Positions 2,661 through 62,100 of a DNA stretch of 64,000 nucleotides are shown here, one piece after another (position 1 is the first letter of the stretch; each line of letters starts with the position of its first letter). The stretch spans positions 26,969 to 90,968 of IMG/VR virus record IMGVR_UViG_3300045988_095676; one strand, 5' to 3'. Both the position numbers and the translations under genes were made by a program. The notes under the pieces were generated by a model. That model saw only the letters and a program-made list of their open reading frames with translations. It did no database searches and had not been told where the DNA came from. The stretch is from a virus.

Positions 2661-3353
2661 ATGAACTACCCAGAGCAACAAATGCTTAAGATCCTTAATA
2701 GGGATCTGCTAAGTAATCCGATGTATGTTATTAACAATCTCCATATATATGATTGGGAATCTGACTTCTTGGCCATAACAAGATCATTGTACGCTTATGA
2801 AGTAGAGGTCAAGATGTCTAAACAAGATTTCTTTAACGACTTCAAAAAGGATAAAAAACATAAGGTTCTTAAAGACGGCATTATTAAAGTAGGTGGTGTC
2901 ATAAGCTATCCTCCAAACTATTTCTACTACGCCTGTCCGCCTAATATGATTGACGTAAATGAAGTTCCGTCTTATGCCGGGCTGATTTATGTCGATGTTA
3001 GTAAAAATAGGAAGAACGTCGTTAAGGTCGCACCTTTAATTCATAGACAGAAGTTTGATGTAGTGGGTAGGAAACTGGTGGATAAGTTTTACTACAATAT
3101 GCTTACTTGGAAGAAAAGAGCTATTTCAAACGTGTATGCTGACCCAGCCAAGGAAAGAGAGAAAGGCGTGCGTGCCGGGGCTGAGGCTGTGAGGAAGTCG
3201 GCCTGGGATGCGTTCAGGGCGCAGTGCCCGCACATTGCTTTCCCCTATGGAAAAGAATTTCCGATGTGTGACGATCACGAACAAGATCATCCCATGAGAG
3301 ACTGCATACTTCAGTGTGAAAAAGGTGGAATATTTAAAAACAGATTGAAATGA
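2661..3353 (+). CDS. hypothetical protein, possible PD-(D/E)XK-fold nuclease (MmcB-like)
   Basis: ORF track. D...ExK-type pattern (ESDFLAIT...YAYEVEVK) near the N-terminus. The functional call is weak. Confidence 0.45.
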   Translation: MNYPEQQMLKILNRDLLSNPMYVINNLHIYDWESDFLAITRSLYAYEVEVKMSKQDFFNDFKKDKKHKVLKDGIIKVGGVISYPPNYFYYACPPNMIDVNEVPSYAGLIYVDVSKNRKNVVKVAPLIHRQKFDVVGRKLVDKFYYNMLTWKKRAISNVYADPAKEREKGVRAGAEAVRKSAWDAFRAQCPHIAFPYGKEFPMCDDHEQDHPMRDCILQCEKGGIFKNRLK

Positions 3354-3619
3354 GCACCCCACGTGAATTAAGTAGAATAGCTAATAGGATAGCCGGTAAG
3401 ATGACTGATGATGGATGGGTTAGCCCCGGTAGAAAGAATCTCGTTTCCGATAAGAAGGTTATGGAGTTAATAGATTCGATTTTTAATGAAATTTGGAGAG
3501 AATTAGATGACGGGAAAAGAGTCCATATCAGGAAACAGATGATTTTCAAAAAGATTTTTGTCAGTAGGCAAAAAGATAAATACTATATACAATGCATAGA
3601 AAAAAGGGACGCCAAATAG
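3350..3619 (+). CDS. hypothetical protein
   Basis: ORF track. ATGA start/stop overlap with the upstream gene. Confidence 0.6.
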   Translation: MSTPRELSRIANRIAGKMTDDGWVSPGRKNLVSDKKVMELIDSIFNEIWRELDDGKRVHIRKQMIFKKIFVSRQKDKYYIQCIEKRDAK

Positions 3620-4439: not shown

Positions 4440-5554
4440 ATGAGAAGAAGATTTTTTAACAAAATAGGGGGGGGTATTTACCTACTGATAATTTTATAGT
4501 TTTTGATAAATCTGTATCAGATCCGGCTAATATAACAATAAGCGAAGACAGTGATTTTTTAAATAGGTTGATTACAAGTGGCTTTTATAGAGTTCTTTGC
4601 AAGAGCGCTATGGGAGGAGGAGAGGTTTTTGTATGTAGGTTGAAGGAAGACAACAGCAATTTGTATCTTGATGGTAGTCAGGCTAATCTTACCGGACCAG
4701 AAGGTGATGTGATGGTCGTTTTCTTAGAATTTTGGTATAAATGGTATAAGGTGGATGATAATAGATTTCTTTATCATTTTGCTGATCATGATATTGACGG
4801 CACTTACATCCATGTCCCGGAATCTCTTGTTGGAGCATATAAAGGATATGTATCTTTGAATGGATTATATAGCTGGAGTGGTGTTAGTCCTACAACTTCA
4901 AAATCATTCAACGATTTTGAAGGTTATGCGAAAGCGCGTGGTACCGGGTTTCAGATGATAGATTTTCAACAACATTGCGTGATTGCTATGATGTTGTATG
5001 CTAAGTACAAAACACGTAATATTCAATCTGTATTAGGATTAGGTGGCGCAAATAATAATCCGGCTACAACAACGGGAAGCAGCAACGCAACCGGCGGTGC
5101 GGATACCAAAAACGAAAGTTCAAAGTACGTTTGCGGCTTAGGTTTGGAAGGGGTTTTTGGTGGTATCTATGAATGGGTTGAAGGTGTAGAAATCAACAAC
5201 CGAGTTTGGAAAATCACCGACCCAGACGGATCGACTCGCAATGTGAACGCCGGAACTTCCAATGGCTGGATAACGAATATCGCAGCGGAAAACGGTCCGT
5301 TTTTCGATGTGGTGCCGACAAATGTTGGCGGTAACGATTCCATGCATTATTCAGATTACTATAGTCAGACATCGAGCAACTCCATTGTTTTGGCGCGCTC
5401 CTATAGCGGCTCGGATACGAGTAGTGGCGTGGCGTATGCGTATGCGTCTCGCAACGCGTTGAGCGCGAGTTCGTACTTCGGTTCGCGTCTTGCTTTCCGT
5501 GGAATCATATCCGAGGTGGCTCCAGAGCAGTTCAAAAAATTACCTGTATTATAA
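4440..5554 (+). CDS. fibre/receptor-binding-like protein with C-terminal FGE/C-type-lectin-like fold, interrupted at a G8 run (needs -1 shift)
   Basis: ATG 4440 encodes MRRRFFNKIGGG. The frame of ORF 4568..5554 is open back to 4460 through G8 at 4467-4474. GLGLEGVFGGIYEWVEG and the terminal ...GSRLAFRG resemble the GNVWEW / GFR motifs of FGE-type lectin folds. Confidence 0.5.
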
Positions 5555-6057: not shown

Positions 6058-6936
6058 ATGGTACAAGATATTGATATAAAATCCAAACGAATATTATTGT
6101 TTGATTTTGATGGAACGCTTATAGAAACCGCTTCTGGGAATACGTTCGCTACAGACTTGACAGATATGAGGATTAAGATGGATGTGGTGAATAAGGCTCT
6201 TGACCTCATGCAGGAGAACGGTGTTAAGGTATTTGCTATCGTAAGCAATCAAGGAGGAGTAGAAGCTGGGTTTGTTTCTGGAGCTGATATTGAAGCTAAG
6301 ATAGAATACGTACTGAGGTCCGTACATGATCTGGCGGTAAAGAGAGGTATAAGAGGCGTCCTATATGAAAAAAGGTTGTGTTATTCAAATGACGAACAAA
6401 ATCCGATGAGGAAGCCTAATACGGGCATGATTGATGATATTCTTATGAAGTGTAAAGACACGGTAATGCGCGGTATGAACTTCAGTCAACTTAAGGGATG
6501 TTCGTTGATGGTCGGGGACGCCAGTGGTCTGCCAGGGCAGTTCTCTGATTCGGATAAGGTATGTGCCTATAATTCCGGTATTAACTATATGGATATTACT
6601 ACATTTTTGGATAAAGATCTTGATTTAGAATATGTATTGTCCAAAGAACATACAAGTGAAGGAATAGTTATTCTAAACAACGATCATATATATATCCTTG
6701 AAAATCCATATGGGGTTGGTCTTAATATAAAAATCACTTTAAAAGATTTTTATAAGATTGAAACCGATGATGGAAAAACTGCAACCGTAGATGATGTGCT
6801 GAATATAAGGATTGATAAAGATCAGAATTTTAATTCATATAGTGATGTTATAAAAATAGAAACATTAAAAGACGGTAGTATCAAATATACAAGCTTATAT
6901 CATGAAAGTAAAGAAAACAGCGATAGTTTATCATAA
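6058..6936 (+). CDS. HAD-superfamily phosphatase (polynucleotide 3'-phosphatase / GmhB-like) with unknown C-terminal domain
   Basis: HAD motif I LLFDFDGTLIE, motif II VSNQGG, Lys motif MRKPNTGM, motif IV MVGDASG. ATG 6058 lies 1 nt after the upstream stop. No kinase P-loop. Confidence 0.7.
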   Translation: MVQDIDIKSKRILLFDFDGTLIETASGNTFATDLTDMRIKMDVVNKALDLMQENGVKVFAIVSNQGGVEAGFVSGADIEAKIEYVLRSVHDLAVKRGIRGVLYEKRLCYSNDEQNPMRKPNTGMIDDILMKCKDTVMRGMNFSQLKGCSLMVGDASGLPGQFSDSDKVCAYNSGINYMDITTFLDKDLDLEYVLSKEHTSEGIVILNNDHIYILENPYGVGLNIKITLKDFYKIETDDGKTATVDDVLNIRIDKDQNFNSYSDVIKIETLKDGSIKYTSLYHESKENSDSLS

Positions 6937-7858
6937 ATCGGATTTAGATGGCGTTGTATCGGCAGCCATCGCAACCATGTACGAAAACAGTAAAAACAAG
7001 GATGTTGTTTATATCCCGTATTCGTATGAAGATGATGTTAAGAAAGTTGTTGACCAAGTACGTGACTTAGATGTTGTTTATGTTCTTGACGTGTCTTTTG
7101 GAGCCGATTCTAAAACTGTTTTCAAAAAGTGGCTTGATGAAGGGAAGAGCCTGATGTGGATAGATCACCACAAGGGAATTATTGAGGACAGTAAGACATG
7201 GGGGTTCGTAGTTCCAGGGTTGAGGAGGGTCGGTGTCGGTGCGTGCGCTCTGGCTTCGGACCTGCTTATGGGGAAGGTGCCGGCGATCGTCCGATGCCTG
7301 TCAGACTACGATGTGTGGAATAAAGAATCTGGCTTAGGCTGGGATACGGTAGTAGCTGTCCAGTATGCCTTGAGATCAAAAATAAGACTCAATGTATTGA
7401 TTGCATTGTCGTATTTATATGATCACTTTAAAGAAAACATGAAAGACAATGAAATTGATCTTATTTTTTATGATCTTGCTAAAGAAGGACGTGCTATAAT
7501 TAATTACATGGCTTGTAAAAACGAAGATGAGGTAAGTAGGTACTCGTTCGAAGCTTACGTCGACGAGGTTAAGGTTATGGCTATGAATACCGCTGAATTT
7601 AGCTCTAAGGTATTTGATTCTCTTACACCGGACTGGTTAGACGGTAGAAAAATTAAAGCCCTGATGCCATTTTGTATCATGCCATGTGGAAAAGTTAGGT
7701 TCTCTCTTTACGAATGCGTAGAAGACAGCGTAGATTGCTGTGAGGTAAGTAAGAGATTCGGTGGTGGAGGACATGCTGGTGCTGCTGGATTCGTTATAGA
7801 CGTATCAAGTGACCAGTTTAAGGACTTCCTTGAAAGTAAAAAACTTTTATCGAAATGA
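6902..7858 (+). CDS. DHH/DHHA1-family phosphoesterase (NrnA/RecJ-like)
   Basis: Motifs HKSDLDGV, DVSF, WIDHHKG (DHH) and GGGGHAGAAGF (DHHA1 GGGH). Confidence 0.8.
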   Translation: MKVKKTAIVYHKSDLDGVVSAAIATMYENSKNKDVVYIPYSYEDDVKKVVDQVRDLDVVYVLDVSFGADSKTVFKKWLDEGKSLMWIDHHKGIIEDSKTWGFVVPGLRRVGVGACALASDLLMGKVPAIVRCLSDYDVWNKESGLGWDTVVAVQYALRSKIRLNVLIALSYLYDHFKENMKDNEIDLIFYDLAKEGRAIINYMACKNEDEVSRYSFEAYVDEVKVMAMNTAEFSSKVFDSLTPDWLDGRKIKALMPFCIMPCGKVRFSLYECVEDSVDCCEVSKRFGGGGHAGAAGFVIDVSSDQFKDFLESKKLLSK

Positions 7859-8300: not shown

Positions 8301-8380
8301 ATGTGATGAGGGAGAGGAATGGTGAAATGTTTATGTGATGGGAGAGATATGAGAAAGAGGTTTATGTGATGGGAGAGAGG
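8299..8380 (+). repeat. three direct repeats TTATGTGATGrGrGAGAG (iteron-like)
   Basis: Copies at 8299-8317, 8331-8347 and 8362-8380, with period 31-32 bp. Confidence 0.8.
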
Positions 8381-8408
8381 GGGTACCTATCACGAACCTC
8401 CCGCCCCC

Positions 8409-8463
8409 GAAACGCGTTTTCTCCCCCGCACCCCCCTTCGCTGGAAAACCGGAAACGCGTTTT
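8409..8463. repeat. two copies of palindromic GAAACGCGTTTT embedded in C-runs
   Basis: Copies at 8409-8420 and 8452-8463. C-runs at 8400-02, 8404-08, 8423-27 and 8431-36. Confidence 0.8.
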
Positions 8464-10922: not shown

Positions 10923-11110
10923 GGCGTGGGCTGAAGGCTCTCTATTCTCTCTATGGAATGATATTATCTCTAAATACCCCATACTTCATGCCAGAGTATA
11001 AGCTTGTAGCGCTCTCCGTATGCCGGTAGTGAGGCCGAGAGCGCAGGTTCTATGCGGAAAGCCGGAGGATTAGCCGGGGTTGGAGAGGGGGAGAGGGAGG
11101 GCACTCCCTA

Positions 11111-11250
11111 CCAACAAAATTCAATAGATAAGCGTTTTAAAACAGTGTTCTGTAGATCATTTCCACAAAATTCAATATGATAAGGGTTTAAAACAGCATT
11201 ATATAGGTTCCTTCCAACAGATTAAGGGTTGAGGACTGCATTATGTGAGT
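11111..11250 (+). repeat. three imperfect tandem repeats (core ATWAAGSGTTTAAAACAG..TAG), period about 52 then 42 bp
   Basis: Cores start at 11128, 11180 and 11222. The first two units also share ACAAAATTCAATA. Confidence 0.7.
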
Positions 11251-11285: not shown

Positions 11286-11555
11286 ATGGATGGTATGAAC
11301 GTATATGACTTTGCGCCTGACTTAGATTTGAGTAAGGAGGTAGAAGGTTCTATTTTCGGGGTAAAAGGAATAGAAGGCAGTGATGGAATAGTATATGCTA
11401 AGGTAGTTAGCTGTGTAGACGTTAAGGATTACAGTTGTGATAGGTGTATTTTTTATGATTGTTATAAGGATAAATGTTTATTATCGCGTAGTGATAGTTG
11501 TATAGATGGAGATTGGATTTGTAGGTACGAACAGGCTGCCATAGAGGGGGAGTAG
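11286..11555 (+). CDS. Cys-rich hypothetical protein
   Basis: ORF track, preceded by the same 19-nt element as the 8859 gene. Confidence 0.65.
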   Translation: MDGMNVYDFAPDLDLSKEVEGSIFGVKGIEGSDGIVYAKVVSCVDVKDYSCDRCIFYDCYKDKCLLSRSDSCIDGDWICRYEQAAIEGE

Positions 11556-11663
11556 GCGGCGCCTTGGGCTAAGGCCTGCGGTTGTAGGTGGAACGTAGGT
11601 CGGAGCAGAGCCGGAACAGTTTATTGTGGAACTAAAAAAAAATAAAAAGGAGGAGATAGCGAT

Positions 11664-13039: not shown

Positions 13040-13056
13040 TATTTCTGCATCATAGA

Positions 13057-13117
13057 GGGGATGACGCGGCGTGCCGGTGCGTATGTGCCGGTCCTGGTTC
13101 GATTCTGGGCATCTCAC
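13057..13117 (+). ncRNA. tRNA-like acceptor/T-arm element (not a full cloverleaf)
   Basis: ggggatg/catctca pairing (6 bp including G3:U70), 29-nt GC-rich linker with a gtgccggt direct repeat, T-arm cctgg-ttcgatt-ctggg. Confidence 0.35.
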
Positions 13118-13138
13118 AAACAATAAAACAAAAAAGTT

Positions 13139-15754: not shown

Positions 15755-16228
15755 ATGAAAGAAGAAGTAGAACGGATAAAGAAGTTGGTAGGCATAGATC
15801 ATAACAGATGGGAGCAACCTTGTACATGTGATAAATGCAAGAACATGTGTAAGGTTCCTTGTATTGGTACGCCAAAAGACATAGAGGCTATCATAGATGC
15901 CGGATACGCTGACAGGTTAAAAGAAACAATGTGGATGGTAGGGTATCTTGCAGTGAAAGAAAAACCAATAGCGATGATCCAGCCAACAGAGAAAGACGGG
16001 TGGTGCGCATTCCGCCGGCCGGACGGTCTATGCGAGCTGCATGACCGTGGACTAAAGCCGACTGAAGGAGTTCTGGCTTCTTGTAAGGTGGTTAAAGAAG
16101 ACAATGTCCCAACATATGAAACGTCTGTACTTAGAGCAGTAGCTCATGAGTGGGTTAAGGTAGAGAACTTCGCAACTATAATGAGGGTCGTTTTTAAATT
16201 TTTGCATGAAAATGAACGTAGAAAATAA
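15755..16228 (+). CDS. Cys-rich metal-binding protein (YkgJ/CxxCxxCC-like)
   Basis: CTCDKCKNMCKVPC plus DGWCAF...DGLCELH resemble the zinc/iron-chelating UPF0153 pattern. Confidence 0.45.
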   Translation: MKEEVERIKKLVGIDHNRWEQPCTCDKCKNMCKVPCIGTPKDIEAIIDAGYADRLKETMWMVGYLAVKEKPIAMIQPTEKDGWCAFRRPDGLCELHDRGLKPTEGVLASCKVVKEDNVPTYETSVLRAVAHEWVKVENFATIMRVVFKFLHENERRK

Positions 16229-17394: not shown

Positions 17395-17568
17395 AAAGAT
17401 TATGAGAAGTTTCTTAACTCCATATCTCCAGATAGAGACGATGAGGCATGGATCATTGGAGGAAAGAACAGGTATTGCGGTAGAGAGAATTATGGTACTA
17501 TGATCAAAAGGTATGATCCTATTGGTTTTAACGTAGGATACAGGGAGTGGGCAGAGCAGCCAGGGTAA
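17380..17568 (+). CDS. hypothetical protein
   Basis: ORF track. Confidence 0.5.
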   Translation: MGKSRKDYEKFLNSISPDRDDEAWIIGGKNRYCGRENYGTMIKRYDPIGFNVGYREWAEQPG

Positions 17569-17813
17569 GGAGGCGCCCGTCCTGCCATGAGGCCAGCCTG
17601 GCTGTTCGTGGCCAGGGCCATACATTAATCAGATAGTGAACGGCGAAAACAATACATAAAATGGGAAACGAATTAAAACTTAACAGCGCAGAAGAAGCAG
17701 AAGTAATTTTAAGAAATGGTGGCTGATTATAAAGGTCGCATATATGAATATTACGAGTTCAAGAGAGAGGTCATTGATAAGATAAGATAATTATATACCT
17801 AAAATAATAGTTT

Positions 17814-18781: not shown

Positions 18782-19591
18782 ATGGAAGACGATCTTATTA
18801 CAACAAAAGAAGTAGGCGATTATCGCATTAAAGTGTATTATTGCCGTGATTCAGAATGTCCTATAACTAATTGGGGTTTGTTTGGGTCATTCTTTTTTGA
18901 ATACTCAGATACACATCGATTACATGATGAATGCAATTGGAAAACTTTCTTCTACGATAACAAGCATGATCTTAGAGATGTTATTGATGCTATTGTAATG
19001 AAGCATATAGAACAGAAAGACATTGTAAAATATTTAAAGAAAGGGGAAGCGAATGGGATCTCATTCACATACAACAGAGGTGGCAATGTATGGGAGTTGA
19101 AACATAAGACAAGTCTATATATAGGTCAAGAGTTTTCACCAGGTGATTTGAAGGACTTTGATTGCAGAGGAGAATTAATAGAGGATCTGGATGATGAAGA
19201 CCTGTTAGATATCATATCCAAATATGGAAAAGATGTGGTAGCTATAGAGTGGTCGACAAGGGGTTATAATCAAGGTGATTATATAAAAGGGATAGCATAC
19301 GTTACAAAAGAAAAATATGATAATGAAGTCTGCAACAAAGAAGGAGACTGGAAAGAAGATTGTGCCAAAATTATAGATAATGAAGTAAAGTCCATAGGTA
19401 TGTGGATGTGGGGAGATGTAAAAGGGTACGTTCTTGAAAAGAAGGTAGCATTTACCAAGAAATACAAAGACGAATCAAGAGAGGATGAAGATTGCGAAGA
19501 ATGGGAAGAGGTTGATTCTTGCTGGGGATGTTACGAGGAGACAGATGAATTGATAAAGGAAGTCATGATAGAGAATGGCTTAGAAGAATAG
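18782..19591 (+). CDS. acidic hypothetical protein
   Basis: ORF track. Confidence 0.7.
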   Translation: MEDDLITTKEVGDYRIKVYYCRDSECPITNWGLFGSFFFEYSDTHRLHDECNWKTFFYDNKHDLRDVIDAIVMKHIEQKDIVKYLKKGEANGISFTYNRGGNVWELKHKTSLYIGQEFSPGDLKDFDCRGELIEDLDDEDLLDIISKYGKDVVAIEWSTRGYNQGDYIKGIAYVTKEKYDNEVCNKEGDWKEDCAKIIDNEVKSIGMWMWGDVKGYVLEKKVAFTKKYKDESREDEDCEEWEEVDSCWGCYEETDELIKEVMIENGLEE

Positions 19592-19735
19592 GTTGTAATG
19601 GCTGATAGTGACGGACGCCGCAGGAGACAGGTGGGTAAAGCGCGAAGAGTTCCGGTTCAGAGGAGACGCGGCCTGCTCTGCGTGGCGTAATGCTACAGTA
19701 GATGAAATTGTTGAACATTTTAAAAACAGATAATT

Positions 19736-22865: not shown

Positions 22866-23930
22866 ATGAACAATTCAATGGTCGCTCACTTGTGGGCAAA
22901 CGAAAAGCAAGAATCTGCAAATGGTAGTAATTTCTATTTTGAAGGTGAAAGTATTTACTCCTATGGAAGACATTTTGAGGTCGGAAGAATCGTGCGAAAC
23001 AAGCGTGGAGAAAAGGCGTATTTGATTAATGATACATACTATTCTTCTACTACAAGCAAGCATCAATATTATGTTCGTGAAGCAATACCAACTGGCTCAA
23101 AGGTGTTCTATGTTGAATGTAATATATCATATTGTATCGGTAACATGCTCTTTGTTACCAATATGTTGGAATGTATTAAAGATGCTATTGAAAAATACAA
23201 GAAAGCCAGAACCGAATTGTCTTATCGGGATGTTTGGGGGAATTTTAAAAATCTGATGGATTATATTGAGTTCTTCGATATGGGGACTCCCCGGCGTCTT
23301 CTTAAAAAGAGCGCAAACGAATGGCTTGGAACTAACCATGAATTATCATGGAAATCAGATAAGATTAAACGTGAACATGTCCGTGAGTTGAAACGTGTTT
23401 TCCAGATATTATTGAATCATCAAGCACTGGAAGTCCTTGGAACCGTTATTGTGATTGTAGATGAAGTTTGTGGTGAAGGAACTTGGTTGAAATATCGGGA
23501 AAGAGTTGAAAAATATAGAATAAATATAGAAGCAAAACAGGAAAAAAAGCGAAGGGCAAGGGAAGAAGAATTAGACAAATTTCGTAAGGATTTTTATGAA
23601 AAATTAGAAAAATGGAAGTCGGGAGAACTTAATTTCTTGCATTCATATTATTTTATTGATTGTGCTGACGTAAATGCTTGGATGCGCATAAAAGGGGGAA
23701 TTATTGAAACGAGCAAACAAATAAAAATCGGGATAGAAGAAGCCAGAAGGATGTGGCAGATGGTGTCACTGTTGCACCGGGGAGGCCAGTTCCGGCATGG
23801 CCTGGTAGAGGACGTGGGTGGCAATAAGTGGAGCATAAACCGGTATGAAAACGATATACTGACAGCCGGATGTCATCGTATTGCGTATAGTGAGATGGAA
23901 AGTATTGCAAAGCAACTGGGATGGGCGTAA
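22866..23930 (+). CDS. hypothetical protein
   Basis: ORF track (354 aa). Confidence 0.7.
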   Translation: MNNSMVAHLWANEKQESANGSNFYFEGESIYSYGRHFEVGRIVRNKRGEKAYLINDTYYSSTTSKHQYYVREAIPTGSKVFYVECNISYCIGNMLFVTNMLECIKDAIEKYKKARTELSYRDVWGNFKNLMDYIEFFDMGTPRRLLKKSANEWLGTNHELSWKSDKIKREHVRELKRVFQILLNHQALEVLGTVIVIVDEVCGEGTWLKYRERVEKYRINIEAKQEKKRRAREEELDKFRKDFYEKLEKWKSGELNFLHSYYFIDCADVNAWMRIKGGIIETSKQIKIGIEEARRMWQMVSLLHRGGQFRHGLVEDVGGNKWSINRYENDILTAGCHRIAYSEMESIAKQLGWA

Positions 23931-34145: not shown

Positions 34146-34305
34146 AATAAGAATAGAAGCTGACGATGAAACTATCTTTTATGCTCACATACAGAGAGAA
34201 AGTTATGGTAAGGATATAGCTATCGCAGTGAAAGATAGAGATAAAGATGAAGTGGAAACAGTGTTACATTGTATTAAAGAAGAATTGATTAGAGGAAGAT
34301 CATGA
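34120..34305 (+). CDS. hypothetical protein
   Basis: ORF track. Confidence 0.5.
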   Translation: MTDMRKLYKIRIEADDETIFYAHIQRESYGKDIAIAVKDRDKDEVETVLHCIKEELIRGRS

Positions 34306-35848: not shown

Positions 35849-36195
35849 AAAGAAAAATTAGAAGAACAGGAGAGATAATAGACGTAATCACTTTCAGTAG
35901 CTCAACTACAAGAAGCGACCATGACAGAATACAGTTCTATGGTGATAATGGGAATGTGATAAGTGAGAGTTTAAATTTTTATCTCGATACCCTTCCTGTA
36001 AATGACGAAAACAAAGATGTAGACTGGGAGCAACGTAGATTCGATCTTATCAAGGCTTATTCTATTGAGTTTGTTAAAGCACAAAATAGAAAAGGTGAAA
36101 TAGATTGCGGAGTATATGTACCAGATGTGGTGTCATGGTCTATAACTATAGCAGATAGAATCATAGAGGCGATGAGAGGAGTTAAAAATGCTTGA
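35845..36195 (+). CDS. hypothetical protein
   Basis: ORF track, ATGA overlap. Confidence 0.6.
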   Translation: MKRKIRRTGEIIDVITFSSSTTRSDHDRIQFYGDNGNVISESLNFYLDTLPVNDENKDVDWEQRRFDLIKAYSIEFVKAQNRKGEIDCGVYVPDVVSWSITIADRIIEAMRGVKNA

Positions 36196-38379: not shown

Positions 38380-38658
38380 ATGGGCAGATCAACAGAGTAC
38401 TACAGGACTCATCCAGAAGCCAGGAAGAAAAAGGCTAAAAAGGACAAGGAGATAAATGCCAGACCGGAACAGAAAGCCAAACGCCGGGAGCTTGGTCGTA
38501 AAAACTACGAAACGGACAAGAAGAAGGGCAAGGGCTGGAGGAAAGGCAAGGATTGTTCTCATACCAAGAACGGTCTTAGGTATAAATCAGTAAAAGCTAA
38601 TAGGGGATCCAAGTCGGATACGAAAGGTGACAAAAATGCAAGAGGAGATAGCAAATAG
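38380..38658 (+). CDS. highly basic Lys/Arg-rich protein
   Basis: ORF track. About one residue in three is K or R. Confidence 0.55.
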   Translation: MGRSTEYYRTHPEARKKKAKKDKEINARPEQKAKRRELGRKNYETDKKKGKGWRKGKDCSHTKNGLRYKSVKANRGSKSDTKGDKNARGDSK

Positions 38659-45225: not shown

Positions 45226-45523
45226 CGAGGAATTTGTATTGGATAATAAGAAAAGGGTTGTTGTAAGAAAAAGAATATCTTATTTAAGCAAAGGGGATAA
45301 AGTGTGGATTGTGTCTTCCGACGGGTATCTGCTACACACGGACGTGGTTAGAGCCGACCGCGGCCGATCTTATGTGGATATAGACGGTATCCTGTATTGG
45401 AAACGAGGATTGGATGGCAAGCATCGTAATCGTAATAACTACATGCAGTTTGCCATGACACCAGAAGACGGTAAGAAGTATGTCGTATATTACCCGGAAG
45501 GATTTAAAGACAATGACTTATGA
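45218..45523 (+). CDS. hypothetical protein
   Basis: ATG 45218 inside ORF 45164..45523. Confidence 0.55.
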   Translation: MTDEEFVLDNKKRVVVRKRISYLSKGDKVWIVSSDGYLLHTDVVRADRGRSYVDIDGILYWKRGLDGKHRNRNNYMQFAMTPEDGKKYVVYYPEGFKDNDL

Positions 45524-46539
45524 TGGTCCCGGAAACGCATTTGCTATATAAGGAGTTTAATGGTGTGAAACGTCTTGCCATATCTTATTCCCAGATAGAT
45601 ACGTTTCTTACTTGTCCAATGAAATGGTATAAAACTTACGTGGAGGGCAAAAGGTCTACGGAAAAACAAGAAGCTACGTCTTATGGTACGGTTATTCATA
45701 AGACACTGGAATACTTCTTCAAGAACGGAAGACAGCCTTCTGGCAAAGACCTGGGGGAAGCTATAAGTTACTATGCTTACCAAGAAGACATACCTTGGCA
45801 ATCACCGGAAAATATGATGATAGCCATGAAGCAATCTGGAGAGCTTCTTGCTTGGATTGTGGATCTGTTCAAAAAAGACGGCAATAGGTTTATGATAGCT
45901 GATAGTGATCTTAATCCCTGCGAGAAACTTATCAGACACGGCGCTATAGTTGGAGTCGAAGAAGATTTTGTGCTGCCGTACCGTCTTCCTAAGCCTGTTA
46001 ACATAAATGGAGTAATTCATACTCATGTGTACATAGTAGGATCGGTAGACCTTCATCTGGCTATAAAAAGCAAGAACGTAGTTCACCATTATGTCATAGA
46101 TTGGAAATCAGGTAATAAGGTTTTTGATTCTAAGAAGTTGGAAACGAATTTACAGCATCCTATATATTCGTTTTACATCTATAGAAAATATGGTGGAGTT
46201 CTGCCAGATATGAACATCTATTTCTTTACCAGGACCAGACAATACCAAAAGGTTAAGGTGGATGAGGAACGTAAAACAAAATCTATAGAGATGCTAAATG
46301 ACACTTTGTCTAAAATGTATGATTTTGAAGATAATAGTGTAAAAACATTTCAGGCATACATCCAGGGAGCAGAAGGAGCCAGGTATAGCAAGCGGCGTGC
46401 CACCCTAAGCCAGCCTGTTCCGCAAAACAAGCTACCCTGCCCGTCAGCACTGTGTTACTATTGTGACTTTGGATTACATAACAAAAACGAATGCCCTTTC
46501 TCTTCGGATTGGGATCCGTCTAAAAAGATAAAACGATGA
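45520..46539 (+). CDS. Cas4/RecB-like PD-(D/E)XK nuclease with Fe-S cysteines
   Basis: N-terminal Cys (FLTCPMKWY), core GSVDLHL...VIDWKSG, and a C-terminal CPSALCYYC...C cluster. Confidence 0.7.
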   Translation: MMVPETHLLYKEFNGVKRLAISYSQIDTFLTCPMKWYKTYVEGKRSTEKQEATSYGTVIHKTLEYFFKNGRQPSGKDLGEAISYYAYQEDIPWQSPENMMIAMKQSGELLAWIVDLFKKDGNRFMIADSDLNPCEKLIRHGAIVGVEEDFVLPYRLPKPVNINGVIHTHVYIVGSVDLHLAIKSKNVVHHYVIDWKSGNKVFDSKKLETNLQHPIYSFYIYRKYGGVLPDMNIYFFTRTRQYQKVKVDEERKTKSIEMLNDTLSKMYDFEDNSVKTFQAYIQGAEGARYSKRRATLSQPVPQNKLPCPSALCYYCDFGLHNKNECPFSSDWDPSKKIKR

Positions 46540-47035: not shown

Positions 47036-47038
47036 GTC

Positions 47039-47416
47039 ATGAAAAAAGAAGTCACAATCAAGGAAGATATGGCTGTGTTTTATAAAAATACAGGAAAAGA
47101 ACTATGGATTTATAACGGACTTTTCAGAAACAAGGTGTTGTCTATAAAAAAAGATAAAGCCATTATCATGTGTGAAACTGATGCTGAATATGCTGTACTG
47201 ATAGAAGATAATCAGTTTATTGCCGTAGCAAAAAACATGGATTATGATTACTGCTGCGCATTCACATTAGGTAATGCCGAGGCTTATGGGGATCGTATGG
47301 GCATATCGTGCAGTGTATGCTTGCTTGAAGATAACGAAGATAAAGCAAGGGAGATGTTGAAAGAGGCGATAATAGAACTTTCAAAAAACAGTAAAATAGA
47401 TTGCGATGGGCTTTGA
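47039..47416 (+). CDS. hypothetical protein
   Basis: ORF track. Confidence 0.6.
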   Translation: MKKEVTIKEDMAVFYKNTGKELWIYNGLFRNKVLSIKKDKAIIMCETDAEYAVLIEDNQFIAVAKNMDYDYCCAFTLGNAEAYGDRMGISCSVCLLEDNEDKAREMLKEAIIELSKNSKIDCDGL

Positions 47417-48827
47417 ACTTAGACCTTACCAAAAAGAGGCAGTAGATGCCGGGCTTAAGTTCCTTACAGGAAGATCTAAGAAGCCTGGCATAGAAGTCTT
47501 GCCGTGTGCAGCGGGGAAGTCTTTGATAATTAGCAAGATAGCTCATGAATTAAAAAGACCTATCCTTGTATTACAGCCATCTAAAGAGATTCTGGAGCAG
47601 AATTATGCGAAGGCTGTATCATTCGGTTCTAAACCTACCATATATTCTGCTTCATGTAAAAAAAAAGAGTTATCGGCTATGACTTATGCTACACTTAAAA
47701 GCATAAAGAAAGACGTAGCAAGGTTGAAAGATATAGGGATAGACACATTATTGATAGATGAGGTGCATAGCGGGTATTCTCCTGAAGAAGGTTCTGAATT
47801 TATGGAGTTTATGAACAGGTTCCCAGAGGCGAAGGTGCTGGGCTTCACCGCCACGCCCTGCCGCCTCCGGACCTACAGCTCCATGCTGGAAGGAAACTAC
47901 AGCAAACTTAATATGCTGACGAAAGACGAGCATAATTTCTTTAAGAAGATAGTTCATGTGACTCAAATACAAGAGCTAACTTCTCAGGGATTTTGGTGCC
48001 CTCTTAAGTACGAACGATGGTCGTTTGATGAATCGGCTCTGATATTAAACAGTACCGGAGCCGAATATACCAACGAATCTATTAAAGAAAGCATCGTACG
48101 AAACGGCTTAAACAACTCTATCTACAAGCGCCTTCTTCAACTTATGAACGAGCGTAAAGCTATTTTGGTTTGCATGGATTCTATCGAATCATGTAATAGA
48201 ATATCAGAGTTCATGAATGCCAGGATGGGAGCCATAACCGGTGTCGTAACATCGCTAACAACCAAAAAGAAAAGAGAGCAAATCATATCCGATTTCAAAG
48301 AAGGTAAGTTGAAGGTGGTTTTTAATTATTCAACGCTTGCTACCGGATTTGATTTTCCCGAACTTGATTGTGTGATGTTTGGACGACCAACATTCTCATA
48401 TTCAACATATTACCAGGTGCTCGGCAGGTGCGTCCGCATCCATCCTGACAAGAAAGAGGCGCTGATAGTTGACTGCTGCGACAACATGAGGCGCTTTGGT
48501 CGGATAGAAGACCTGACAATCGAGCAATTCCCTTCTAAGGGCTGGTGTATGTTTGCCGGCGATCAACTTCTGTCTAATATAAGGATGGGTGATATTATTA
48601 CCAAAGACGAGATCCTTCGTCGGGCAGCCTCGATTAAATCTGTGAATGGAGATGGTAGGAGAGAAGACGATCTTGACAGTATAATAATGTGGTTTGGAAA
48701 ATATGAAGGAATTAGATTCAAGGACATACCGGTGTCGTATTTTAGGTTCTTGGCTGAGAATATGGCGGTAAAACCGGGAGATAGGAAAGAAAAGATTATC
48801 GAATATTATAATAGGATAAAAGCATGA
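47406..48827 (+). CDS. SF2 DEAD/DEAH-type helicase with C-terminal DUF3820-like tail
   Basis: RPYQKEAV, Walker A AAGKS, DEVH box, motif III GFTATP, motif VI QVLGRCVR. C-terminal WFGKYEGIRFKDIP..YFRFL. Confidence 0.8.
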   Translation: MGFELRPYQKEAVDAGLKFLTGRSKKPGIEVLPCAAGKSLIISKIAHELKRPILVLQPSKEILEQNYAKAVSFGSKPTIYSASCKKKELSAMTYATLKSIKKDVARLKDIGIDTLLIDEVHSGYSPEEGSEFMEFMNRFPEAKVLGFTATPCRLRTYSSMLEGNYSKLNMLTKDEHNFFKKIVHVTQIQELTSQGFWCPLKYERWSFDESALILNSTGAEYTNESIKESIVRNGLNNSIYKRLLQLMNERKAILVCMDSIESCNRISEFMNARMGAITGVVTSLTTKKKREQIISDFKEGKLKVVFNYSTLATGFDFPELDCVMFGRPTFSYSTYYQVLGRCVRIHPDKKEALIVDCCDNMRRFGRIEDLTIEQFPSKGWCMFAGDQLLSNIRMGDIITKDEILRRAASIKSVNGDGRREDDLDSIIMWFGKYEGIRFKDIPVSYFRFLAENMAVKPGDRKEKIIEYYNRIKA

Positions 48828-51223: not shown

Positions 51224-51227
51224 TGCC

Positions 51228-52304: not shown

Positions 52305-52843
52305 TTAAAGCAAGATTTTACATTAAAAAATCCGATTGCGGTAACGACTACCGTCCAGTCAAATGGCCTATAAAATATCCATATTGGTGTAGTGGTGAAT
52401 CCGATGATTCATTCATACTTGTAGTGTATGCCGAAGACGAAGACAGCATAAAAGAGCTGTGGCCGGAAGCATACGATATTAATGTCTTAGAAAAAGATAC
52501 TGAGGTTAAATTCACATTAAGATTTCCTAAGCCTAAATGGTATGAATTGCAAGAAGAGAGATTAGAAGAGTATGATAAATTATATGGTAAATTCGTATGG
52601 GTTACGGACATGTGTCTAAAAGATGGGAAAATAAGAAAGGTAAAAGCCAGAATAGAAGATTGTGGTGGTCTTTTATTAGCCGACACTCCTGGTCGTTACA
52701 CCCCTTATCAGATAGGGGATTGTGCTTTTGAAAGCAAGGAAGAGGCTTTAAAACATGCAGAGGAACAGAGAACGGATTTAATTAAGTCTCTTAGGTTACA
52801 AATACTCGAACTTGAAAATCTAAAATTTGAATGCGATGATTAA
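52301..52843 (+). CDS. hypothetical protein
   Basis: ORF track, ATGA overlap. Confidence 0.65.
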   Translation: MIKARFYIKKSDCGNDYRPVKWPIKYPYWCSGESDDSFILVVYAEDEDSIKELWPEAYDINVLEKDTEVKFTLRFPKPKWYELQEERLEEYDKLYGKFVWVTDMCLKDGKIRKVKARIEDCGGLLLADTPGRYTPYQIGDCAFESKEEALKHAEEQRTDLIKSLRLQILELENLKFECDD

Positions 52844-53549
52844 TTACGCGGCAAAAGCCAGAAAAGCTTATTTGATAAACAATTTCGATAAGATTCTTAA
52901 CAGTCTTAACACGCTTCATTCAACGGTTGAGACCATGACGTTGTTCGTAAACGACCAGGCTTATAATTACATTCTTAAGCTAAAGGAAGTAATTAAAACC
53001 AGTCCTATGTATAAGCACAATATCAAGCGTCTTTTAAATGACATGGACAAAGAGATAAAGAGGTACAATGCTTCTATCTACTACATAAATAAAGAGCGTA
53101 GTGAGGTTATAGCTGATATAACACAAGCGATGGAGGATTGCCTCATGCCATACATAGACGACCTGGCCGGCGCTATAAGGGCAGCCGTGTGGTCGAGGGG
53201 TGTGTCCGAGGAGCGGACGGAAGCGGCGGTACTGTCCCTAATCGTATCCTCCTTGGCCACGACATCAGGCAGACTTATCTCAGGTGGATATCAGATCATG
53301 AAAGAAATGGGTGGTGGCTGGGGTGGTAATCCATTTACGTTTATGAGCATTGATAAGATAAGACACTTATCTACATCATTATCTGATGCTATTACCGGTG
53401 GGGAAATAGCTCTTGAAGAAAAAGAAGCCAATGATATAACTAAGGCAATGGATGTTTTTATTGAGAAAATGTCTGATTCGGATATTGTCGATAAGGTAAT
53501 TAGCATACTCGAAGAGGCAGAATCTAAAAATAAGGAGGAACGATCATGA
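52827..53549 (+). CDS. hypothetical protein
   Basis: ORF track. Confidence 0.65.
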   Translation: MNAMINYAAKARKAYLINNFDKILNSLNTLHSTVETMTLFVNDQAYNYILKLKEVIKTSPMYKHNIKRLLNDMDKEIKRYNASIYYINKERSEVIADITQAMEDCLMPYIDDLAGAIRAAVWSRGVSEERTEAAVLSLIVSSLATTSGRLISGGYQIMKEMGGGWGGNPFTFMSIDKIRHLSTSLSDAITGGEIALEEKEANDITKAMDVFIEKMSDSDIVDKVISILEEAESKNKEERS

Positions 53550-56130: not shown

Positions 56131-59100
56131 CTATTTGTAACTAACGTCATCGTCTCCTTCCGAATCAGGAGTAGCGCCGATGAAGAACATCATTGACTTG
56201 TTGTTCGTCTGCTGCCACCAATTATAGGCGCGCGCTACGTCTTCCGGCGTCTTGATATTATACCATTGTTTGATAAACGTCTGTTTGGCGAGTTGCCTAA
56301 ATAACTTAGACTCTCCCTTGTATGTACCGGATGTTACTTTATCAAGTGAATAATTCCTAAGATCGGTAAGATCCTTCAGTTTTCGCCCCATAACAAACGG
56401 ATCGTTAATGATATCTACCACGTTAAGCTCCATAATAAACGGCATCTGTGAAGCTATTTCGTTTATGGTTCTGAATCCGACATAGGATCCAAATTGAGTA
56501 AGCCAACTTTCTTCGTTTTCATCATCATCACGCCATCCGGCAAGAAGCATAGATACGGCCTGCATGATAAGGAACGTGCCGGCATAGACACTGAGGCGTT
56601 TGAGATTAGTTTTTTCTACCTCATTCATATTGTCTTTATTTTCGTTCCAGGCATCTATGATGTTTTTCATACCAGACTCGGAAGCCAGGCTAAATGTTTT
56701 GGCTATCATATTCTTTAACGTAATTGACAACCCTTCCTCTTCTTGCATTGTCTGGAAATTGAAGCCACGTCTTTTCCACAGACGTTGAGCTGCCAGCACC
56801 AGCCAGCCTCGGTGGGCGGTCATGAACCTGGCTATCCAGTTGCGCGATGCGGCAGTTCGGTTTTCTTCATTCAAAGATCCGTTACATATCTGCGACAAGC
56901 TACGGACTTGATTCCTGGTTATAGCCATCTGGGTTTCAACTTCCTCAACAGTAACACCCGATCCCGGCTTTACAACCACCTTTCCATCCACGACGTCTAC
57001 CATACTCCATAAAGTACGATCTTTTAATGCGTTCCATTCTCTTTTTATGGTACTCTGTTCTTTATTGCGTTCTTTTTCCATCTTGAAATCTTGGAACGTG
57101 TAGAACCGGCCTTTGTAATAACGAACATTGTCCATAGTAGCAATCATAACCTGCGGATCAAGAGGGTAGTTCAGGATTTCCATAAAAGCATACATAGGCG
57201 AACGCATTAAGGTCCTGGCCGCTCTATTGTATCCGGCACCATACATACGATTTCGGATATTGAATATCCCCATTCTCTCACCTATGACATATAATTTGCT
57301 TTTCCTATCTATGTCTCCGGTTTCTGCTATACAAGATGGCGCAAGACGGGAAAACTCAGCCGATGCGTATTTAAGGGAATCTTTGCTTATATACTGTCCT
57401 ACGGCTGATTCCATGATGAGGTTGATATGGCCTGTCAGGGCGCCGGTAGCTGCCACAAACGGAGACAGTGCCAAGTTCATAACCGACATAAATCTTTCAA
57501 CAGCCATCATAATTCTTGTAAGGTCTACCGTATATCCTCCGATGTTCACCGTAAGTTTTTTGGTGTTCATCCTAATGCCATAATAATGATCGTTGAAGAA
57601 GTCCCTGAACATCTGATATGCTTGGGTTGCTTCAGCCTTTTTACCACCTTCAAATTGTTTATTTAGTAACATCTGCTCCAGTCCTTGGGCAAGCTCTATA
57701 GACTTCTGCTTTTCGTTGTATAACGATGATTGCATCATAAGCATCGAATAAGAGTAGCCAAAATCGTGAGATACATCATCTTGGTTCTCCAATTCATATA
57801 TGTAGTATTTAGGTATAGACCTAAGCCTGTCTTCTGGATCATACACTTCTCCTTGCCTGGTCTTACCATATAGAGAATCGTCTACTCTGTCCAGGCACAG
57901 ATCTGATACAAAATTACGAACCGTATTTTTGAAGTTAATACCCAATCCTTCTACACGTTCTATATCTTGTTTGGATATCTGTGGAATAGCATACAGGTTC
58001 GGGCTCTGCTCTTTGTATAGATCAAGGGATTGTCTTTTTATTTCCTTGAGTTTTTGAATCATATTCCACTGCTCTACGTTTTTAGTAGCAACCTCATTAC
58101 CGTCAGCATCATACTTGATACCAAAGTCATTGAAATACGATTCGTCACGATACAGGCTTTTCTTAGGCATTCGATGACCATACCCATGATCTTTTACATA
58201 ATCAGGATTACGACCGCTATTTTCGGCTTCAGATTCAGCCACCCATGCCCTTGCAGGGTCGAAAGACAAGTACGATATGTCCATGCCATAATCTTGGGTG
58301 GATGTACCGTTTTGTACGTCCTTAACCATTTGCGCCACATCTATCTCACCTCGACCGATTTTGTCGATCATAGCTGCATATCCGGTAGGCGCCATGCGTT
58401 TATAGTACGAAAAAACCTGGCTTCTGGCAAATTCATTAACAATAGCATTAGCTTCTTCTACGCCCTCTTCTCTTGTATTATTTAAAAATAAGCTGGCCAT
58501 CTTAGCATTAACAGCATTCCTGAAATCTCTACCGTCTAATTCTTTGCTTATACCAAGCTTTTCTGACAGGTAGTTGGTTTCAGATACGGTAAACAGATAT
58601 CGGTTATCAGCAGCCTTAAACAGCTTATCCCTTAAAGCCTGAATCCTTTTTGCTTTCTTCGCCGTAGTATGACGTTGTACGAACTTCCATTCCACTTCCT
58701 TGGAGTCAGCAAGAGCATTTAAATAAGACTGATTTACTTCGTTTTCAGCCTTACTGCTTTTAGTAAGGTACTTATCAATATCTTCAAGACCCACCATCTT
58801 AGCATAATCTATCAAAATAGCGTAATCGGCTTCAATAGCTTCAGATGCGGCCCTAAAAGCATCTCTTTCGGATGAGGTAAATGTCGCTTCGTTAATTTCT
58901 CCGATATCAGCCACATCGCGATTGTTTCCGATTATTTCCTTGATAATAGCCTTATTTTTTTCTATATCTTTCACAATAGAATCCACGTCAGTCGCATCTC
59001 TATCACTTGTCGTAGAACTAATGATATCATGCGCCATTTTAAGATACGAAGCCTTGTTATTTGATTCGGTACGTGCCGACTGTTCTGATTCTACATCATT

Positions 59101-62100
59101 CCAAAACCGATCGTTGAATGACAGGTGACCTCCCAACATAAGTGTCTTCAGCGCAGCTTCTCCTCCAGACTCGCTCTGAATCGTTCTTAATTTTTGCAAA
59201 AACGATTCTGATACGGCATTAGTGGCATTATTTGATTCCTTTCTCCAAACTTCATTTATAGCTTGTATTTCTTTGGCCATCTTAAGTTGGTCGCCGGTTT
59301 TTTCCACTCTCCTGGTTCCTACATATATGTATTCTGAAGCTGCTTCCTTACGTTGTTTACGAAGCAGTCCTTCTTCTTCGTAATTGCTGCTTTTAAAATA
59401 GGCAACCTCATCAAAATTACCACCGCTATCAATAAAAGGCTGCCTCAATATCCGTTTTTGCCGGGATAGGGCATTAAGATATTCTTTGGTTGTTTGAGAA
59501 ACCGGATACCCTAATTCTTCTTCAGCCTTTTTGTATATGGATTCCATTCTTGTGGCATAACTTTCGCTAAATTCCAATTCCGAATTTTCAGCATCCCACT
59601 TTTCCATCTGCTCTGTATAGATCTTTTCCTGCTCGATGGTAAAAATATCGGTATTAACCCTATCAGACGATGGTTTGAATTTAGCGTTTTCAGTAACCGT
59701 ATTTCCATCCTTGTCAACTACTTCTCTTTTAAATACGTAATTACGGTTATTGTCAACCACATCACCAATTTCTTCTTCTGATATCTCTATGTTCATGGCA
59801 GTCGCAAACGCTCGCATCTGCGCCAGCTTCTTATTACGATCGTATTTAGCCATATCAAGAGCACTACGAAGGTAATTAGAAGTTTTGCCGTCTACTTTCT
59901 GAAGCAGTTTTTCAAATTCAGATTTGTTAAAACCATGCTTTTTCGCATATGCCAGGAAATCGGATATGGCGGGCTGGGCATTCACCATCGCATTGTAATT
60001 GTCTTTGGCAATCATAGCTCCAAGAGCGTTATTGAACGGACTGGAAGAATGCTCTAATATACCGAACCACCTACTTATCCAAGAAACATCGTGTTGAACC
60101 TTGTCGAAAAATTCTTTTACTCTCTTTACCTTATCTGCCGGCACATGAAGTTCGTTCATTAACTTATCAAGCAACGTACTTTCATCAAGGTCTTGTACTG
60201 ATTTAATATCAGACTGAATACCATTGATGTCGGCAATGACGGTATTGATCCTATTTGTATAATCCTGCTTTTCACGTTCATCAAATTCGGTACTTCTGTT
60301 ACGGATATATCCTCGAAGATCGTTCATGATCGGAAGAACCTGATTGTTGATAATATCTACGTTCTTTCGATCATTGGTATTGAAGTGAAGCTTACCGTCT
60401 TTGGTATCACCATGAAGGATGGTGTTCACCACATTGCTTAAGTATCTGACCTGAGCTTCGGCTGTAGAGATCATGCTGTTCATGGCAGCCGCCATCTCAT
60501 TCTTGTCTATTTCGGTCTCTACCTTATTTATCTTATCTTCTATGGTCTTAAGCTGAGCAAGGGTCATAGACGTAGTTACAGCCCTATCAGAGCTTATCTG
60601 ACGTAAGTCTCTTAATGTTTTCCTTAATGCCAGGATCTTAGACTCAAGAAACTTGTTCTTGTTCATAGAAGAAAGGGAGTATAATGTAAAGTCATTATCC
60701 TTTAACAGAGAGGTGTCAAATCCTTTATCTATGTCAGTAATGGCAAGATCACGAATGTTTTTAATAACGTTATTCAAATCTTGTCTTTGGGTTGATAAAG
60801 CTGATTTAAGCCAGCTTACGATTCCAGAGAAAAGCTGCCGGACGCGCCCCAGGAAGGAGGTGGGCTCTACCGGCGCCTGTGCTGTGCCGGTCTGCATCTC
60901 CCTGGCGAGGATCTTTCCAAGAATTTCTCTCCTAACAGCATTATCAAGCTCAGCTCCTTCATATACTTTACCGTATGTATTATAATACTGACCTGCATAT
61001 TGGTTCCACTCTTCCGTACCTTCCACATCTTGCAGAACAGCCTCAACAGCATTCTGATCTCTGTATGCCTCTACAAGGAAGTGGGCTGTTTCTTCTACTA
61101 AATCAGATAAAGTAGCATCTTCACCAACTGCTATTACGTTATTGGCAATATCCGCCAATGCCTTAGCAGAAGGTTCGTGCCCGTATTTGGTTTGGTACTT
61201 CTCTATATAATCGGTCATACCTATGACACTAACGCCAAGAGTTTTCAGTATCTCGACAATAGAATTTCGTTGGTCACGTTCCTGCCTGCTATAATCTGAT
61301 ACGATCTTAGCTTTAGTATCAGCATAAAGATCGTTGTCTTCTAATATGAATGAAACTACAAGCGCATCAAAATGATCGTACTTGGCGTCCAATTCATTGT
61401 ATCTTCCTGACTTGAGATCGTTCTTTATCTGTTCCCTACTAATCCTTTCCGTTCCTCCGGTGGCGAGTCTCATAGTTACCTTACTGTTATCCAACGAGCT
61501 TATGGTTATCATACCTTGGTCGTTCATGGAAACATCGGAACCAAAATGATTACGGAGCTCGGTGTAGGATAAGGCTGAATTGAAAAGTCTAATTTGTCCT
61601 GTATGACCTTCTCCTGTAAGATAATAGCTTCTTGTTTCAGGATCGAATATCTTAGATCCGGACAAAAGACCTTTCTTTATAAGGTAGTTAATTATACCAC
61701 CTTTTGTTGATAAAGAAGTAGAAGCAGAAGCGGTCATGACCGGTATAAAAGATTTGGGATTATTAAGAACATACTTTCCAGCCTTGTAAGTAATGTCTGC
61801 CACGCCATCCACGGCAGATTCTTGAACGGTGCCGGATAAGAATCCTATTCTAATATCATTCCCGCCAGAGCGAAGAGCTTCTCCGTAATCTTCAAATAAT
61901 TGATTACGATCATTCATGAAAAACAAACGAGGCTCTCCGGTCTGATACGTTACACCCACAGGATTAGAATCTGTCTGTGGTAACTCCTCTGGGCTAAATA
62001 TCTTAAGACCGTCTTTTATAACCATATAATTAACACCCTTATCCTGTACCATAGATACGGGAGTAAAGTCCGAAGATATAGCATCTTGTAGATACTGCCC

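Follow-up and report, generated by a model that had tools for sequence, protein, structure and literature searches.

GC-rich blocks of about 90 bp at even spacing in the AT-rich genomes of epsilon crAss-like phages

Short GC-rich elements scattered over a genome have been described from several systems, and these provide the background to the present analysis of a 64,000-nt stretch of viral DNA (IMG/VR record IMGVR_UViG_3300045988_095676, positions 26,969 to 90,968; hereafter the window), in which blocks of about 90 bp with a GC content of 62-70% interrupt otherwise AT-rich sequence, both inside and between genes. The repetitive extragenic palindromic (REP) sequences and bacterial interspersed mosaic elements (BIME) of enterobacteria and the GC clusters of yeast mitochondria have been given roles in making mRNA more stable, in binding gyrase or in recombination. 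Like the blocks they are short, GC-rich and dispersed, and those of yeast also stand out in very AT-rich DNA, but they form repeated palindromic families that are mostly intergenic or inserted, whereas the blocks are unique, non-palindromic and for the most part native in-frame coding sequence. The palindromic elements of Rickettsia are similar in size (~100 bp) and lie in frame within protein genes; they are nevertheless a repeated sequence, genuinely inserted so that the protein gains a peptide segment, whereas conserved domains run through the blocks, which have no common sequence. Co-conversion tracts left by homing elements likewise appear as short altered patches in conserved genes, and the phage population to which the window belongs does contain an intein and TnpB elements. 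The blocks, however, do not fall on the sites of mobile elements and, where checked, do not vary in presence, and some of them are non-coding. The variable regions of diversity-generating retroelements (DGRs) come close in length, the one in crAssE-Sib, the described relative of the window, being 96 bp, and one block is situated at the C-terminus of a DUF1566/Lcl_C protein, yet the blocks are without a template copy, show no depletion specific to adenine and are unrelated to one another.

Hotspots of GC-biased gene conversion are known from eukaryotes and have been proposed for bacteria. They share with the blocks a local enrichment of GC at all classes of site, including those that change amino acids, an advantage of G/C alleles while they segregate, a turnover of positions between lineages and possibly an association with recombination, the link being weakly supported for the blocks. 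They differ in that they produce gradients on a kilobase scale, whereas the blocks are of ~90 bp, sharp-edged, flat-topped and evenly spaced. To our knowledge phages are not known to have a determinant of hotspots or a bias in repair. Each of these nearest analogues falls short in one or more of the defining features that were tested, and it is the 90-bp scale, the sharp edges, the even spacing, the course through reading frames and the occurrence in a virus that are unusual among known compositional islands. Nothing comparable was found in the literature on GC-rich islands in phages, and neither the paper describing crAssE-Sib (PMC11054128) nor Yutin et al. 2021 mentions GC content or GC-rich islands.

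The window has a GC content of 37.7% and its coding strand is strongly purine-rich. Its match, at ~94% nucleotide identity, is a human gut phage of 151,256 bp entered as csAssE-Sib (OR575929.1) and named crAssE-Sib in the literature, where it is assigned to Epsilonunovirus, a proposed genus of the epsilon crAss-like phages (PMC11054128). The epsilon crAss-like group is reported to be without DNA and RNA polymerases of its own (PMC7886860). Near-identical contigs in IMG/VR number in the hundreds and the phage group is very abundant in the human gut. The population sample used below consists of 238 related contigs piled onto the window; these are metagenomic assemblies of uncertain relatedness.

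Composition, distribution and preservation of the blocks

A sliding scan of 60 bp for discrete stretches of at least 62% GC identified 22 blocks in the window, against 2.71 ± 1.31 (maximum 8) in 300 trials in which codons were shuffled per gene and bases per intergenic stretch. The complete crAssE-Sib genome was found to carry 49 over 151 kb, or about one per 3 kb. A first-pass annotation, made from the sequence alone, had described many genes as containing a patch of G/C-ending codons. The patches are real and all eleven of the coding examples coincide with called blocks, but only ~15 of the ~107 called genes hold one. Clustering of GC at third codon positions (GC3) went beyond what the amino acids predict when synonymous codons are shuffled with the protein fixed; p was <= 0.008 for 9 genes and <= 0.05 for 13. 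It was strongest in the SF2 helicase (GC3 0.96 over 25 codons), the DUF1566 protein (0.92), the DnaB-like helicase (0.88) and a giant protein (0.88). The patch in the primase-like gene, offered as a GC3 island, does not reach significance when only GC3 is considered (p = 0.25), and the gene of the Cas4-like nuclease lies below the listed part of the GC3 ranking (p > 0.38). GC-rich stretches had also been reported directly behind four stop codons; three of them match blocks, whereas the fourth (10920-45) is a GC-rich run of only ~26 bp. Neither of the ordinary accounts named in advance holds: the blocks are far beyond normal variance and the relatives are not GC-rich genome-wide.

The blocks have sharp edges and a narrow range of lengths. 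A two-state hidden Markov model (HMM) gave a median length of 89 bp with an interquartile range of 81-106 bp, and the centre-aligned GC profile has a flat top of 0.63-0.69 over ~80-90 bp and then falls directly, without tails, to the baseline of 0.38. Spacing is more even than random both in the whole crAssE-Sib genome (coefficient of variation 0.65 vs 0.97, P = 0.0005) and in the window (0.61 vs 0.94, P = 0.012). Although the rise of GC3 is genuine, it is not a matter of synonymous third positions only. The GC content at codon positions 1, 2 and 3 is 0.42-0.92, 0.42-0.72 and 0.51-0.86 in the blocks, compared with 0.45, 0.33 and 0.37 genome-wide, and since it is raised at all three the amino-acid composition is shifted too. 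GC is also raised in the intergenic blocks, and 6 or 7 of all the blocks are non-coding. Compared with the genome as a whole A and T each fall to about 0.6, while on the coding strand C is doubled and G increased 1.5-fold. The last fifth of genes is weakly enriched for blocks (14/42, p = 0.03), and several follow directly on stop codons. Because Pfam domains and helicase motif III continue through the blocks they are not insertions, which upholds the original view of them as native, in-frame coding sequence.

Comparison of the blocks with each other revealed no similarity beyond chance 10-12-mers, and no dominant k-mer or common motif was found across them. None of the blocks recurs anywhere in the 151-kb genome of crAssE-Sib, and hence nothing there could be the template repeat of a DGR. 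When the 22 blocks were folded as RNA on both strands and compared with dinucleotide shuffles there was no general signal (mean z -0.24); 36214-36304 and 47804-47907 alone reached z ≈ -3.6, on the + strand, and the other 20 were unremarkable. A search of Rfam at the gathering threshold returned four tRNAs only, and at E ≤ 1 the region from 8 to 20 kb gave no match. The blocks are defined by base composition rather than by sequence.

A sister lineage with a genome of ~150 kb, whose major capsid protein is 58% identical, may represent the second epsilon genus that has been proposed. Its density of blocks is 2.9 per 10 kb, compared with 3.25 in the lineage of the window, but positions are mostly different and only partly shared, GC at homologous sites being modestly raised in each direction (P ≈ 0.02 each; 20.4 kb of protein-aligned sequence). 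One block in TerL, at residues ~220-250, has the same place in the two genera and is GC-rich in each (0.61-0.67), with an amino-acid identity of 25-30% and a nucleotide identity of 42-48% that are lower than those of its flanks. What is conserved between the genera is therefore composition, density and sometimes position, but not sequence. Other phages scanned at the same relative threshold were nearly devoid of blocks: T4 had 0 in 50 kb, the gut contig MT835597 and Bacteroides phage BS-TP2 had 1 each, and the 4 found in 41 kb of Cellulophaga phi17:2 were all within its tRNA gene cluster. With the controls near-empty, the pattern is real and specific to this lineage.

The population sample showed that G and C are preserved inside the blocks. 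At four-fold degenerate sites with a G/C majority, diversity was 0.0875 in blocks vs 0.195 outside (permutation P < 1e-4), and 26% of such sites were polymorphic in blocks compared with 55% outside (Fisher p = 2e-14). Non-coding G/C sites behaved in the same way, with a diversity of 0.050 in blocks vs 0.110 outside (Fisher p = 8e-6). Four-fold A/T sites were not different (0.119 vs 0.130), and the ratio of diversity inside to outside was unchanged at codon positions 1 (0.87) and 2 (1.04). Outside the blocks the diversity of G/C sites was 0.18-0.21 whatever the GC content within ±1, ±5 or ±30 bp, and 0.19-0.21 from 20% to 60% local GC, and in the bin of 0.5-0.6 local GC it was 0.085 in blocks vs 0.197 outside, a 2.3-fold difference (p = 7e-6). 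These controls rule out short-range context or local GC as the cause of the low G/C diversity.

With the minor allele taken as derived on frequency alone, polymorphisms from strong (G/C) to weak (A/T) and those from weak to strong stood at 46:35 in the blocks, which is compatible with 1:1, whereas genome-wide per-site rates led to an expectation of 99:30 (p = 1e-4). Change from G/C to A/T is disfavoured, such variants being reduced about two-fold at synonymous as well as non-coding sites, and the blocks are therefore at a GC-rich equilibrium and are not decaying relics. At four-fold sites the equilibrium GC content calculated from polymorphism rates was 0.58, compared with 0.64 observed. On the whole of these data it is probable that a persistent GC-favouring process acts on discrete tracts of DNA of ~90 bp, whether or not they encode protein.

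Possible causes of the blocks

Pairs of common single-nucleotide polymorphisms (SNPs) that flank a block had a lower squared correlation (r²) than pairs at the same distance that span none, e.g. 0.088 vs 0.163 at 400-500 bp. Expressed per block as a ratio to the expectation for distance, r² had a mean of 0.45, whereas segments of 100 bp drawn at random gave 0.68 (P = 0.015 by resampling; Mann-Whitney p = 0.028). The normalised step in divergence across a block was 0.85 vs 0.73 for random segments (p = 0.05), and the correlation of divergence between left and right sides was 0.34 over blocks vs 0.44 over random segments (p = 0.07). These tests employed 14-18 blocks, with SNP pairs that are not independent and assemblies that are mixed. 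The lower linkage disequilibrium over blocks is suggestive, though not decisive, of exchange there, and it is because of this observation (p ≈ 0.02) that a link with exchange is proposed. The explanation ranked first, if only tentatively, is that the blocks are maintained in connection with recombination. The force favouring GC would be linked to homologous exchange when genomes meet in a co-infected cell. The blocks would be the preferred places of strand pairing and exchange in an otherwise AT-rich genome, and G/C alleles would win at them by GC-biased repair of mismatches in heteroduplex DNA; alternatively, stable pairing at exchange points might itself be selected. We infer two parts of this account, the link with recombination, from the lower linkage disequilibrium over blocks only, and the molecular cause of the bias. 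Maintenance of this kind fits the G/C bias at all classes of site, the amino-acid changes, the turnover of positions and the lower linkage disequilibrium. A number of observations weigh against it. Biased gene conversion normally gives graded peaks, whereas the blocks are flat-topped, sharp-edged and of a narrow range of lengths, and biased conversion by itself would not lead one to expect even spacing. In blocks, polymorphism from weak to strong was not significantly raised (p = 0.27), and the allele-frequency spectrum did not differ inside and outside them (p = 0.18). The evidence for recombination is weak, with P values of 0.015-0.07 from so small and non-independent a sample, and the lower linkage disequilibrium could be a consequence of GC-richness, not its cause. 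No motif or enzyme was found that would fix hotspots at the blocks, and no Vsr-like mismatch endonuclease was detected by Pfam beside the C5 methyltransferase gene.

Nearly as likely, though again with the odds against it, is that the blocks are selected as stable-duplex or stable-RNA elements with no role in recombination, whether as landmarks for a protein that binds GC-rich DNA, as barriers that give order to topology, replication or transcription, or, like REP elements, as barriers to 3'-to-5' decay of mRNA. Nothing but local stability and length would then count, and therefore any GC-rich sequence would serve. Sharp edges, a narrow range of lengths and even spacing are better explained in this way than by maintenance through recombination, and a density that the genera have in common despite the turnover of positions, the preservation of G/C in coding as well as non-coding DNA, the energies of RNA folding, which in absolute terms are -20 to -48 kcal/mol per block irrespective of base order, the slight over-representation in the last fifth of genes and the several blocks directly behind stop codons are all in keeping with it. 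There is, however, no binding motif and no fold beyond that due to composition, blocks also occur in the middle of very long genes, the lower linkage disequilibrium over them is not predicted, and other AT-rich phages (T4, Cellulophaga phi17:2) manage without them. A specific conserved secondary structure of RNA or DNA, one of the causes put forward in the first-pass annotation, is largely excluded and must be rated very improbable: G/C is indeed preserved and two blocks (36214-36304 and 47804-47907) do fold better than their shuffles, but 20/22 do not, there are no matches to Rfam, even at E ≤ 1 in the region from 8 to 20 kb, and synonymous variation is tolerated inside blocks. The same rating applies to recoding for escape from nucleases or CRISPR, also put forward there, since point changes suffice against CRISPR or restriction and neither the 90-bp non-coding blocks nor the even spacing would be explained. 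A locally lower mutation rate is improbable. A GC-rich duplex of 90 bp would open less and suffer rarer deamination of cytosine, and so could sustain itself without selection or conversion; this agrees with a polymorphism that is reduced at G/C sites only, through fewer variable sites and with no clear change of allele frequency, and with the closeness of the predicted equilibrium GC (0.58) to that observed. Yet G/C-site diversity outside the blocks is not lower where local GC is higher, the 2.3-fold gap persists within the same bin, and the sharp edges, fixed length, even spacing and absence from other AT-rich phages are left unexplained.

Two further possibilities concern the coding sequence or its source. 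Clusters of rare codons that slow ribosomes for co-translational folding would make use of the fact that G/C-ending codons are in the minority here (GC3 0.37), and position-specific conservation has been reported for such clusters, as would befit the TerL block that occupies the same place in two genera despite a diverged protein. This is rendered most unlikely by the 6 or 7 non-coding blocks with the same preservation of G/C, by the raised GC of codon positions 1 and 2, which alters amino acids, and by a spacing that follows the genome and not the genes. Patches converted from GC-richer homologues, for example scars of homing introns or inteins, had been the main idea of the first-pass annotation and are now largely refuted, leaving little likelihood that they are the source. 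Several blocks do resemble, in composition and in GC at the three codon positions, same-frame coding sequence of ~62% GC, and mobile elements are active in the population (the helicase intein and TnpB elements). In most database relatives the SF2 helicase is a protein of 817 aa with a Hom_end_hint intein, while the copy in the window is intein-free. The intein site, however, is in Walker A after residue 35 (window ~47511), some 300 bp upstream of the block, and an intein or intron at the block itself was rejected. At this site the window has EVLPCAAGKS where intein carriers have IVSPCG|SGKS, and judged by its residues the window allele may resist homing. A survey of 70 indel events among 80 relatives across 36-59 kb of the window found only 2 that border a block (35619/36169 and 39723/40994); 2 of the 6 blocks in this best-sampled region thus border an indel, which was judged informally to be near chance with ~30 breakpoints in 22 kb. 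No AT-rich version of these six blocks exists among the relatives with sufficient coverage (56-80 per block), all of which retain 55-67% GC, and related contigs have the same density of blocks as the window. A donor for the helicase block was absent from 185,579 species genomes, both as exact DNA and as its 12-residue peptide in any codons. The compositional equilibrium, the non-coding blocks, and the TerL block that is GC-rich in both genera at only 42-48% nucleotide identity are equally at odds with conversion from a donor. Adenine mutagenesis by a DGR was likewise rejected, A and T being depleted equally.

Individual blocks and their surroundings

First in the window are two adjacent GC-rich stretches, 154-213 and 257-379, in ORF (open reading frame) 126..428, which the HMM joined as 164-400 (237 bp). 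They encode a P/Q/A-rich linker and are probably ordinary. Together with 34480..34591, in the E/A/P-rich linker of ORF 34302..35618, where composition explains the signal in part, they belong to low-complexity linkers rich in P, Q, A or E for which amino-acid composition is largely the main explanation. Four tRNA genes are clustered at 2283-2645 (Met-CAT, Gln-TTG, Arg-CCT and Cys-GCA). The block 3138..3250 follows in ORF 2661..3353, annotated as MmcB-like in crAssE-Sib (aa 160-197; GC3 p=0.008), and 5392..5467 lies towards the 3' end of ORF 4568..5554. The gene of a DHH/DHHA1 phosphoesterase (6902..7858) contains 7194..7306 (aa 98-135; GC3 p=0.004).

Several blocks are found where genes are few. 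That at 8368..8462, C-rich on the + strand, lies in an ORF-poor stretch, 11006..11116 is intergenic and G-rich, and 11520..11619 crosses the stop codon of ORF 11286..11555 and carries the TGGGCTAAGGC motif. The sharing of TGGGCT(G)AAGGC by two places had been pointed out previously and was confirmed, with 2 matches where 0 are expected. Extended to AGGCGG-N6-8-TGGGCT(G)AAGGC, the motif occurs at 10906-10945 and 11536-11580, both in the ORF-poor region of 8.2-11.7 kb, and the 3.5 kb around the pair has few long ORFs and no match to Rfam. It could be a regulatory site or a novel RNA. The intergenic block 13050..13118 contains GGTTCGATTC, which was read as resembling the T-arm of a tRNA. Neither ARAGORN nor Rfam identified a tRNA at 13050-13118, and the block might represent the remains of a tRNA or an element of tRNA-like form. 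A Ro60-related protein is encoded by the phage outside the window. Further blocks are 15969..16071 in ORF 15755..16228 (aa 72-106; GC3 p=0.022), 17530..17632 in a region that varies among relatives and has no convincing + strand gene, 19610..19689 immediately downstream of the stop codon of ORF 18782..19591, and 23742..23836 towards the 3' end of ORF 22866..23930 (aa 293-324; GC3 p=0.002).

The block 28091..28210 (GC3 0.85; clustering p=0) lies in the C-terminal Lcl_C/DUF1566 domain of ORF 27383..28237. DGR variable regions are usually placed at the C-terminus of such domains. In crAssE-Sib the DGR with its 96-bp variable region has a reverse transcriptase at 46419-47816 of OR575929.1, and no template copy of the block in the protein at 27383-28237 was found. 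The genes that follow include a primase-like gene (36188..37201) with 36214..36304 in its N-terminal zinc ribbon (RNA fold z = -3.6), and a DnaB-like helicase (38627..39736) with 39614..39698 in its C-terminal tail (GC3 p=0), 25 bp upstream of the insertion of a TnpB element. This element, of 1270 bp at 39724-40993 and directly downstream of the helicase gene, carries a TnpB gene (ORF 39775..40968; OrfB_IS605 with a Cas12f1-like TNB domain) and is missing from crAssE-Sib and from 68/80 relatives. The gene of a PD-(D/E)XK (Cas4-like) nuclease (45520..46539) holds 46362..46452 (aa 281-311), and that of the SF2 helicase (47406..48827) holds 47804..47907 (aa 133-168), which covers motif III GFTATP (GC3 0.86-0.96, p=0; RNA fold z = -3.7). 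The remaining blocks are 53140..53263 in ORF 52827..53549 (aa 105-146; GC3 p=0.006) and two in the gene of a giant structural protein on the - strand (56131..62553), 56760..56862 (aa 1898-1932) and 60814..60922 (aa 544-580; GC3 p=0).

Variation in gene presence among the relatives is extensive. It affects 43281-45112 and 51042-52301, and a flotillin-like gene and the region of the C5 methyltransferase are deleted in many. Insertions of 1.3-1.65 kb are present in some relatives at 38144, 38643, 50022, 52841 and 53745. In the sister lineage TerL (L247 1946-5878) is a single ORF of 1310 aa with an in-frame insert of ~1.1 kb relative to that of crAssE-Sib, which is probably an intein. ORF 50361-50918 matches the N-terminal domain of a dATP/dGTP diphosphohydrolase (PF18909), a family associated with phages that alter nucleotide pools or DNA bases.

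Significance for crAss-like phages

The epsilon crAss-like phages may possess a previously unrecognised class of element, consisting of ~50 unique, evenly spaced blocks of 90 bp that are defined by composition and have a physical function across the genome, although we regard this as a possibility with the odds somewhat against it. Such a function would be, for example, that of nucleation points for strand pairing and exchange, or of landmarks for a DNA-organising protein, and the altered protein sequence would be its cost. If the blocks are selected, there is a DNA-level function which is met by composition alone and which overrides the choice of codons and amino acids in essential genes, and a signal that lies only in composition is invisible to annotation based on motifs, repeats or homology. 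If the blocks result instead from GC-biased conversion at fixed points of exchange, these phages would lend themselves to the study of how far biased conversion shapes the GC content of prokaryotes, which is debated; we know of no comparably sharp case for a virus. Should the blocks be as they appear, they distort analyses of codon usage and scans for horizontal transfer and for selection in the genomes of this abundant group of gut phages.

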